Below are positions 26,900 to 28,579 of a stretch of DNA of 61,918 nt, piece by piece. How positions within the stretch are numbered: position 1 is the stretch's first letter; each line of letters starts with the position of its first letter. Below the pieces are notes generated by a model, which made no database searches, was not told where the DNA came from, and worked only from the letters and a program-made list of their open reading frames with translations. The position numbers and the translations under genes were made by a program. Location of the stretch: the NCBI GenBank assembly GCA_020721975.1, contig DYLR01000001.1:1-61918 (forward strand), read 5' to 3'. The stretch is from Blastopirellula marina. GTDB taxonomy: Bacteria > Planctomycetota > Phycisphaerae > Sedimentisphaerales > UBA12454.

Positions 26900-27688
26900 C
26901 TACGACTTTTCACTGCTGCCCGATACGGACGATTCCGATTGTGTCTGCAGGGCAACCGTCTTGTCCGAACCGCCGGCAACATTCGACTTGCGGGCCATTC
27001 TGCGGGCCCTGCGATGACCCATTTTGCTCACCGATTCGGGGTCTATTTGTTCGCCGAACTTGCCCCTGTAAATCCAGACCTTTATGCCGACAGCGCCATA
27101 AGTCGTAAACGCCGTAGCTGCGGCGTAATCAACGTCGGCGTCGAGCGTCTGCATCGGAATACTGCCTGTCTTTTGTGTTTCGGAACGTGCAAGTTCCGCT
27201 CCGCCGAGCCGGCCCGAACAGGTGATTTTAACGCCCTTTGCGCCGGCCTGTATGGCCTGTTCGCATTGCTGTTTCATAACTCTGCGAAACGAGGCGCGTT
27301 TTTTAATCTGTTCCGCAATAGCTTCGGCGACCAATCTTGCATCAAGTGAGGCTTCCTTTATCTCGATAACATTGATGGTCACTTTACGATTAATCAGCGT
27401 TTCAAGCTCTTCACGCAACTTGTCAATTTCTGCTCCGCGAGGACCTATTACCATGCCGGGCCTTGCGGTGTACAGCGTAACCTTGACCTCATTGCGGGTC
27501 CTTGCTATCTCGACCCTGCTGATGGCCGCAAACGGCGGCTGGCGATTAAATTTCCTGTCGATATATTCGCGCAAATGATAATCCTCGACGAGCATTTCGC
27601 CGAAGCTGTCCTTGGGAGCATACCAGGTGCTTAACCAGGGACGGGTTATGCCTGTTCTGAATCCAATCGGTTGTACCTTTTGTCCCAT
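26900..27688 (-). CDS. rpsC: 30S ribosomal protein S3 with a C-terminal extension
   Basis: MGQKVQPIGFRTGI.., KH domain GPRGAEIDKLR, and GRLGGAE. Confidence 0.95.
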   Translation of the reverse strand: MGQKVQPIGFRTGITRPWLSTWYAPKDSFGEMLVEDYHLREYIDRKFNRQPPFAAISRVEIARTRNEVKVTLYTARPGMVIGPRGAEIDKLREELETLINRKVTINVIEIKEASLDARLVAEAIAEQIKKRASFRRVMKQQCEQAIQAGAKGVKITCSGRLGGAELARSETQKTGSIPMQTLDADVDYAAATAFTTYGAVGIKVWIYRGKFGEQIDPESVSKMGHRRARRMARKSNVAGGSDKTVALQTQSESSVSGSSEKS

Positions 27689-28254
27689 TAATCACCTCGC
27701 TTGTTTATCTTTTCAGCAACGCTGATATAAATATGACTGGCAAGTTTTTGAATACGGTGAGCCCTGCCTCTGTCTTTGGCTCTGTACCGTTTCGTGCCGA
27801 CCCGTATGCCTGCACCGTTGACACGGGCTTGTTTAACATACAGATTTTCAACATCGGCAGCCGCCTCGTCCGCACAGGCTATTGCGCTTTTGAGCGTCTT
27901 TTCAATAAAATAAGACGCCCGTTTGCGTGTGAATTTCAGAATATCCATAGCTTTCTGCACATCCCGTCCGGCAATCAGCGCCGCAACAAGCTGTACCTTG
28001 CGCGGAGCCATCGGCGCATATCTTATCGACGAATCCCACTGGCTGAGCTGACTGGCCTGCATATTTAAGACAGTCGCCAGTTTTTCAATATCCTCGCTTT
28101 GCGGAATCGGCTTTATCAGCCCCCGCTGCCAGTTTTTCAGTGCAGCCTGAGCATCCTTCTGCTTCAAACCTGTGCGGACTATATGTCCGGCTATCTGCTC
28201 CTGCGAAAGTCCGCTTGCCTCTATTGCACTTTTAAGTCTCTGTGAATTTATCAT
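27688..28254 (-). CDS. rplV: 50S ribosomal protein L22 carrying a roughly 75-aa N-terminal XRE-like helix-turn-helix extension
   Basis: The L22 core starts near residue 77 (IRYAPMAPRKVQLVAALIAGRDV...RAKDRGRAHRI). Residues 1-70 read RLKSAIEASGLSQEQIAGHI...NWQRGLIKPIPQSEDIEKLATVLNMQASQL, like a Cro/C1-type HTH. An internal Met64 is an alternative start. Confidence 0.85.
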   Translation of the reverse strand: MINSQRLKSAIEASGLSQEQIAGHIVRTGLKQKDAQAALKNWQRGLIKPIPQSEDIEKLATVLNMQASQLSQWDSSIRYAPMAPRKVQLVAALIAGRDVQKAMDILKFTRKRASYFIEKTLKSAIACADEAAADVENLYVKQARVNGAGIRVGTKRYRAKDRGRAHRIQKLASHIYISVAEKINKRGD

Positions 28255-28257
28255 TTT

Positions 28258-28290
28258 CTACATACTACCTACTACATACTACATACTATA
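28258..28290. repeat. Heptanucleotide tandem repeat (CTACATA, 4.7 units) between rpsS and rplV
   Basis: CTACATA CTACCTA CTACATA CTACATA CTATA. On the coding (minus) strand this places TAG every 7 nt. Confidence 0.9.
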
Positions 28291-28294
28291 ACCA

Positions 28295-28579
28295 TTACGC
28301 CGGGGTCACTGCCTCTGCCCTGTTGCTGGAATGGCCTCTGAAGGTTCGCGTGAGGGAAAACTCGCCGAGTTTGTGTCCAACCATATCTTCCGTCACAAAA
28401 ACCTTGTGAAACATCTTGCCGTTGTGAACCATGAAAGTATGGCCCACAAATTCCGGCACTATAGTGCTGCGCCTTGCCCAGGTTTTTATCGGTTCTTTGT
28501 ATCCGGTCTGATTCTGTTTGATGACCTTGTTAATGAGCTTTTCATCAACAAACGGACCTTTTTTTAACGATCGACTCAT
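28295..28579 (-). CDS. rpsS: 30S ribosomal protein S19
   Basis: [15 protein letters not shown]..., [19 protein letters not shown]. Confidence 0.95.

Follow-up and report, generated by a model that had tools for sequence, protein, structure and literature searches.

The rplV gene of the window, by which we mean the whole stretch of 61,918 nucleotides analysed here, encodes a ribosomal protein uL22 that starts well ahead of the canonical uL22 core, and the question is what these additional N-terminal residues are and what they would do on the ribosome. uL22, which typically counts 110-130 amino acids in Bacteria, is one of the best conserved proteins of all. It forms part of the lining of the nascent-chain tunnel and is a macrolide-resistance locus, and the first enzymes to act on any newly made protein dock on it. 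An earlier note on this DNA had proposed an in-frame fusion of an XRE/Cro-like helix-turn-helix (HTH) domain with the N-terminal end of uL22, the two being translated together. This proposal is supported by the conservation of the extension in relatives, the alignment of its start codon, the selection acting on it, the Pfam matches of its homologues and an AlphaFold2 (AF2) model with its matches in the PDB. We conclude that the HTH-uL22 carries an XRE-type domain as a ribosomal-protein extension specific to its lineage.

Structure of the rplV gene and choice of the start codon

The gene is flanked by rpsS and rpsC, and the region has the following features:

27688..28254, minus strand: rplV, complete open reading frame for the HTH-uL22, 188 amino acids plus stop (ORF listing and Pfam)
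28252..28254, minus strand: ATG start codon of rplV, the first possible start in frame, aligned with the starts of all same-order homologues
28295..28579, minus strand: rpsS (uS19), upstream neighbour of rplV
28255..28294, minus strand: rpsS-rplV spacer of 40 nt, a TAG-rich heptamer run without a good Shine-Dalgarno (SD) sequence
26900..27688, minus strand: rpsC (uS3), downstream neighbour, whose ATG overlaps the rplV stop codon by 1 nt
27718..28026, minus strand: canonical uL22 core (Ribosomal_L22, residues 77-179), tunnel beta-hairpin included (Pfam and superposition of solved chains)

The core is recognised by Pfam over residues 77-179 (E 7e-26, 90.8 bits vs a cut-off of 28). It is preceded by about 76 codons (28027-28254), which confirms that the frame is open for about 75 codons upstream of the L22 core, as the earlier note had read it; the peptide quoted there corresponds to residues 6-73 of the 188-residue product. 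Only one sense codon separates the upstream in-frame stop from the ATG at 28254, which is therefore the first possible start. Three other in-frame starts are present, a TTG at codon 30, an ATG at codon 65 (window 28062) and an ATG at codon 82, and no SD-like sequence was found upstream of any of them. The internal start that had been named Met64 is in fact Met65, and initiation at this codon would open a gap of approximately 230 nt after rpsS. The SD ahead of the ATG at 28254 is weak in the window. The spacer at 28255-28294 consists there of a run of TAGTATG-like heptamers, and the relatives have at this place a gap of about 12 nt with the sequence AAGGTGA.

Conservation and selection on the extension

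The extension was sought by six-frame search in 41 genomes of the order Sedimentisphaerales (the window's own and 40 related genomes, from 21 genera and 8 families). All 41 have both the extension and its start codon, with matches running from query residue 1 to approximately 181, so that the comparison of rplV lengths across relatives gives the long form throughout the order. At each retrieved locus the frame opens at an ATG aligned exactly with that of the window, and in many relatives the SD-like AAGGTGA is placed 5-8 nt upstream of it. Such a conservation of a 75-residue stretch, from an aligned ATG and in every genome sampled, is far beyond chance. When the 25 closest pairs were compared by the Nei-Gojobori method, dN/dS was 0.02-0.29 for the extension vs 0-0.14 for the core, and pairwise identities within the order average 56% and 74%, respectively. 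These values indicate that the extension is coding and under purifying selection, somewhat less constrained than the core; upstream codons free of such selection, which would have spoken against the domain, are not what is observed.

The same data bear on the possibility that no real domain exists, translation starting from Met65 or later and the upstream frame being an untranslated leader that is open by chance. The weak SD before the ATG at 28254 in the window genome and the 122-residue form given by the NCBI pipeline in one relative would agree with such a leader. It can nevertheless hardly be credited, since the column comparison places a Val at the position of Met65 in nearly all relatives, this Met has no SD upstream, the frame is open from the same aligned ATG in the 41 genomes, the dN/dS of the extension is that of a constrained sequence and a confident fold is predicted for it (see below). 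Initiation at the internal Met, raised earlier as the result that would undo the domain, is thus contradicted both by the lack of conservation of Met65 and by the alignment of the ATG at 28254 with the starts of the relatives.

Public annotation describes the protein as '50S ribosomal protein L22', with PF00237 as the only precomputed Pfam domain. The NCBI records MCA9282546.1 and MCB9842633.1, from Phycisphaeraceae and Phycisphaerales MAGs, give a 122-residue '50S ribosomal protein L22', while other gene callers give 184 residues for members of the same 90% cluster. The automatic choice of the start codon appears to cut off the HTH domain in these 122-residue records. A full-text literature search returned no description of an HTH on uL22, nor any of a Phycisphaerae ribosome.

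Predicted fold of the N-terminal domain

Three features were delimited within the extension:

28039..28254, minus strand: predicted XRE/Cro-like five-helix domain, residues 1-72 (AF2, Foldseek, VIA, Pfam of homologues, dN/dS)
28162..28182, minus strand: extended 7-residue loop, residues 25-31 (I-V-R-T-G-L-K), replacing the tight HTH turn (DSSP of the model, column counts, Pfam HTH_31 alignment)
28126..28161, minus strand: helix 3, residues 32-43, counterpart of the recognition helix (column counts)

The window's own sequence stays below the Pfam thresholds, with HTH_31 at 17.5 bits vs a cut-off of 27 and with HTH_31, HTH_3 and HTH_19 all sub-threshold (E 0.005-0.013). When 28 homologues were scanned singly, HTH_31 was found in 11 of them (best E 2.2e-8), P22_Cro in 11 and HTH_3 in 9 (best E 1.4e-5). 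The AF2 model of the domain, built on the 28-sequence alignment, has a pLDDT of 85.3 and five helices (residues 4-14, 18-24, 32-43, 53-62 and 67-70). The best 50 PDB matches given by Foldseek for this model all contain an XRE/Cro/cI-type domain (TM 0.6-0.72, probability 1.0), among them C.Csp231I, C.AhdI, P22 c2, SinR, lambda cI, DdrO and the XRE-like N-domains of HppE and MPnS. VIA-align gives Z values of 8.2-10.1 over 61-70 residues against C.Csp231I, CylR2, SinR, P22 c2 and 434 Cro. Residues 1-72 are therefore predicted with confidence to adopt the XRE/Cro/cI (lambda-repressor-like) fold, and the HMM search and structure prediction that the earlier note had called for end in HTH matches of the homologues and a confident five-helix model, not in the absence of an HTH fold.

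The proposal that the extension follows the layout of HTH_XRE domains holds with two qualifications. From helix 3 on, the domain keeps the XRE pattern, (L/I)-(K/R)-N-W-x-x-G-x-x-x-P ... D-(I/V)-E-x-L-A-x-x-L-G-V; the 7-residue loop between helices 2 and 3 is non-canonical and, as said, the window sequence lies below the Pfam cut-offs. In a textbook HTH, a tight turn of 3-4 residues joins helix 2 to the recognition helix. The model has the end of helix 2 at residue 24 and the start of helix 3 at residue 32, which leaves no tight turn, and the HTH_31 alignment spreads 64 residues over 56 profile positions, i.e. about 8 extra residues in the window sequence. This loop is itself conserved, R27 being conserved and G29 near-invariant. 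Among the 28 homologues, W42 and P49 never vary, N41 is kept in 27, A35, A38 and G45 are near-invariant and position 40 is K or R. The domain is basic in 27/28 homologues (mean net charge +5.3, mean pI 9.75), with conserved basic positions 6, 12, 27, 40, 44, 48 and 52 in helix 3 and the flanking loops. When aligned to the 434 repressor, N41 would stand at the position of the base-contacting Q33, and the positions of Q28 and Q29 of the same repressor are presumably those that are variable or alanine in the uL22 domain.

XRE/Cro/cI-type HTH domains bind DNA in a sequence-specific manner, in most cases as dimers on palindromic operators. The window domain has in common with them (C.Csp231I, C.AhdI, SinR, CylR2, P22 c2, 434 Cro; HTH_3, HTH_31, HTH_19) the five-helix fold and the sequence pattern from helix 3 onward. 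It differs from them by its fusion to a ribosomal protein without an oligomerisation or sensor domain, by the 7-residue loop instead of the tight turn together with a longer helix 3, and by variable or alanine residues where the beginning of helix 3 would read bases. Another point of comparison is provided by the phosphonate enzymes HppE, HEPD and MPnS, which are among the top structural matches and also carry an XRE-like N-domain on an unrelated protein, with a structural use rather than that of a repressor; they are enzyme subunits, not ribosomal proteins, and their likeness to the uL22 domain is structural.

At the sequence level, the profile of the domain gave only weak matches among PDB sequences, the best being the N-terminal region of TniQ (E 0.005), and no standalone or split relative (proteins of 34-142 residues) was found at E <= 1e-3 by profile search among 5.8 billion proteins. 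A protein-cluster search returned only planctomycete uL22 clusters of 181-184 residues. A word-indexed search with residues 1-76 alone returned the protein itself only, which reflects a limit of sensitivity and not an isolation of the domain.

Distribution of the domain in the Phycisphaerae

The profile of the domain was searched in 201 genomes of the class and matched in 36 of them. It is present in every sampled family of the Sedimentisphaerales (f2, f6, f7, f8 and f1, the family of the window) and also in two further families, f10 (9/9) and f109 (1/1). In the 17 other families of Phycisphaerae the profile search found no domain (for example 0/26 in f94, 0/22 in f95, 0/27 in f97 and 0/27 in f99). 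One further profile match lies in a 497-residue frame and was discarded as spurious. In ten genomes taken from ten of the 17 lacking families, uL22 is short, with frames of 112-167 residues, a Met immediately ahead of the core and a distance of just 28-76 nt between rpsS and the core. A long uL22 was not found in five genomes of other Planctomycetota classes, where the open frames of 124-160 residues are too short. The domain is thus not class-wide and belongs to two separate clades of Phycisphaerae, being in both an in-frame addition kept across the clade, from the order (41/41) to f10 (9/9) and f109 (1/1).

Two trees were built, one from the flanking proteins together with the uL22 core and one from the flanking proteins alone (uL2, uS19, uS3 and uL16). 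In both, the bearers fall in two separated clades, the Sedimentisphaerales (starred support) on the one hand and f10 with f109 on the other, the latter pair being nested, with a support of 100, beside f9 and f11, which lack the extension. With the flanking proteins alone, the AU test rejects the grouping of all bearers in one clade (delta lnL 129, p 3.8e-5). With the uL22 core alone, a single bearer clade is not rejected (AU p 0.43). No core residue was found that is common to both bearing clades and absent from the others, all the differences being specific to the Sedimentisphaerales. Two histories are compatible with these results: (i) a single origin followed by lateral replacement of rplV; and (ii) an old single origin followed by at least 6 losses. 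Given this patchy distribution, rplV may be a core ribosomal gene that was replaced laterally.

Proposed role on the ribosome

A six-frame search of the 1.65-Mb assembly gave one uL22 match, the rplV located between rpsS and rpsC. As this is the only uL22 gene of the genome, every 50S subunit should carry the extra domain, and we infer that the long uL22 is incorporated in each of them unless the domain is cleaved off. For a whole order of environmentally abundant anaerobic planctomycetes, of which cultured members exist, and for a second clade, this would place a transcription-factor-type domain on the uL22 of every ribosome.

The canonical part of the protein is an ordinary uL22. Chains of uL22 from solved 70S structures fit the window core with an rmsd of 1.2-1.4 A over approximately 113 columns and a TM by target of about 0.9 or more. 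The bacterial uL22 family (PF00237; e.g. L22 of Thermus thermophilus, 1bxe) has in common with the window protein this core (residues 77-181), the position between rpsS and rpsC and the single copy; the window protein differs by its extra N-terminal domain and its 188 residues. In the 50 best solved uL22 chains, mitochondrial and chloroplast forms included, about 110-120 columns are aligned (TM by query approximately 0.55) and residues 1-75 are covered in none of them.

The globular domain of uL22 lies on the solvent side of the 50S subunit beside the tunnel exit (PMC5071890, PMC9099147). In the full-length AF2 model (pLDDT 90.4, pTM 0.80), helix 5 continues straight into strand beta1 of the core, which suggests a fixed two-domain arrangement. 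The position of uL22, the location of the extra domain directly before beta1 and its predicted packing against the core lead us to propose that the extra domain would be a module fixed permanently to the ribosome surface close to the exit. The invariant K/R-N-W motif on helix 3 and the basic flanking loops, found in both clades, would fit one fixed nucleic-acid partner, most likely a neighbouring helix of the 23S rRNA, gripped via the old DNA-binding face. Taken together with the parts established above, we consider it probable that the rplV product is a two-domain uL22 whose N-terminal domain acts as an rRNA-contacting module of the ribosome surface near the tunnel exit. This reading is favoured by the uniform basic charge of the domain, by the invariance of the recognition-helix face in two anciently separated clades, by the fact that standalone relatives were not detected and by the precedent of the uL22 extensions of organelles, which are bound to the ribosome (PMC5694952).

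The uL22c of the spinach chloroplast is almost double the size of the E. coli protein (PMC5071890, PMC5694952), and its plastid-specific domain is located on the ribosome near the 3' end of the 23S rRNA, together with uL13c and bL21c (PMC5694952). Organellar uL22c and uL22m thus have in common with the window protein a lineage-specific extra domain that stays on the ribosome surface. They differ in that their extensions are not reported as HTH and in that rRNA changes are seen alongside (loss of H98), whereas no rRNA indel linked to the domain is seen here (see below). If the domain contacts rRNA, it would be a clean natural case of a DNA-binding fold recruited as a structural element of the bacterial ribosome; if it binds something else, it would point to a clade-specific control of co-translational events.

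The fold and Pfam kinship of the domain are also those of DNA-binding repressors. Together with its basic charge and with the N41 that would occupy the Q33 position of the 434 repressor, they could indicate that a free HTH-uL22 binds an operator or an mRNA leader and exerts a feedback on gene expression, or that the domain tethers the ribosome to the nucleoid. The autoregulation of operons by ribosomal proteins is well established in general, and L4 autoregulates the S10 operon in E. coli. We nonetheless hold this regulator to be quite unlikely: the tight turn is replaced by a 7-residue loop, and at the beginning of helix 3, where XRE repressors read bases, the residues vary and are in many cases alanine. 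In addition, the face does not vary between two clades that separated deeply, which one would expect of a universal target such as rRNA more than of an operator. We know of no operator for the HTH-uL22. An extra-ribosomal autoregulatory role, which had been envisaged earlier, is thus less likely than a ribosome-bound one. Very unlikely too, and slightly more so in our estimate, is a working nucleic-acid-binding HTH present on every ribosome and gripping DNA or mRNA at the exit face, where it would serve as a tether to the nucleoid or to transcripts, or would act as a repressor when uL22 is free, the HTH-rplV having spread laterally for that function.

The packing of the two domains could also be understood as an intramolecular aid to assembly, the N-terminal domain shielding or chaperoning the very basic uL22 core and its hairpin before they join the pre-50S particle, with no role or a flexible position in the mature subunit. 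The full-length AF2 model does set the domain against the core (pTM 0.80), and its loss or absence in many sister families shows that it is dispensable for the function of uL22 as such. A basic domain would be a poor shield for a basic protein, however, and an assembly aid would not account for how strongly the residues on the surface of helix 3 are conserved, which makes this explanation highly improbable.

Search for changes correlated with the domain

Changes accompanying the domain were searched in the neighbouring components of the ribosome. The 23S rRNAs of five extension-bearing genomes, five extension-lacking genomes and E. coli were aligned, and the only indels found to track the domain measure 1 nt (near E. 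coli 846) and 2 nt (near 1519-1520). The region of H98 varies without pattern between bearing and lacking genomes. With no larger domain-linked indel, no obvious change of the rRNA is compensated or bound by the domain. Compensation for the loss of the neighbouring protein bL32 was considered and rejected, PF01783 being found in 198 of the 201 genomes of the class.

Peptide deformylase (PDF) and methionine aminopeptidase (MAP) have their primary docking site on uL22, which surrounds the tunnel exit (PMC5071890, PMC9099147). A possible added effect of the domain would be a reshaped docking region for these two enzymes on uL22. The C-terminal helix of PDF was compared in the nine genomes whose gene was matched by the motif filter (four with and five without the domain; the gene of G369 was missed), and no difference was seen, 28-38 residues following the HExDH motif in bearing and lacking genomes. 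The presence of bL32 throughout the class and the similarity of the PDF helix mean that no change in a partner marks a functional consequence of the domain.

These data also bear on the hypothesis of a protein-docking platform, in which the domain would make no contact with the rRNA; at the tunnel exit it would instead provide, in these clades only, a landing pad or a shield for a biogenesis, membrane or targeting, hibernation or assembly factor. In favour of such a platform, uL22 is the primary site of PDF and MAP and one of the four proteins around the exit (PMC5071890, PMC9099147); XRE-type domains often mediate protein contacts, and the lack of a 23S indel tracking the domain is also in its favour. 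We judge it unlikely, because no candidate partner was found, the C-terminal helix of PDF is alike in lineages with and without the domain, and the uniform basic charge and conserved recognition-helix face suit a nucleic acid better.

Several features unrelated to the distribution of the HTH domain, or specific to one lineage, were noticed in these alignments. The 23S rRNA of one Sedimentisphaerales genome contains approximately 290 extra nt at E. coli positions ~1801-1900 (390 nt, where the ten remaining sequences have about 100); each of its two rRNA copies is approximately 3170 nt long, and the insert could be an intervening sequence or an intron. Domain III is shortened relative to E. coli (~1401-1600) in all sampled Phycisphaerae, where the 1401-1500 bin counts 26-88 nt; family f10 is the most shortened (26 nt), and the shortening is unrelated to the presence of the HTH domain. 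Finally, the tunnel beta-hairpin of the Sedimentisphaerales uL22 carries a 3-residue insertion (27796-27810, minus strand, residues ~149-153), reading G-A-G-I-R-V-G-T-K-R where the other Phycisphaerae, the second HTH-bearing clade included, have G-P-x-I-K-R, and this insertion falls in the region that forms the constriction of the tunnel.
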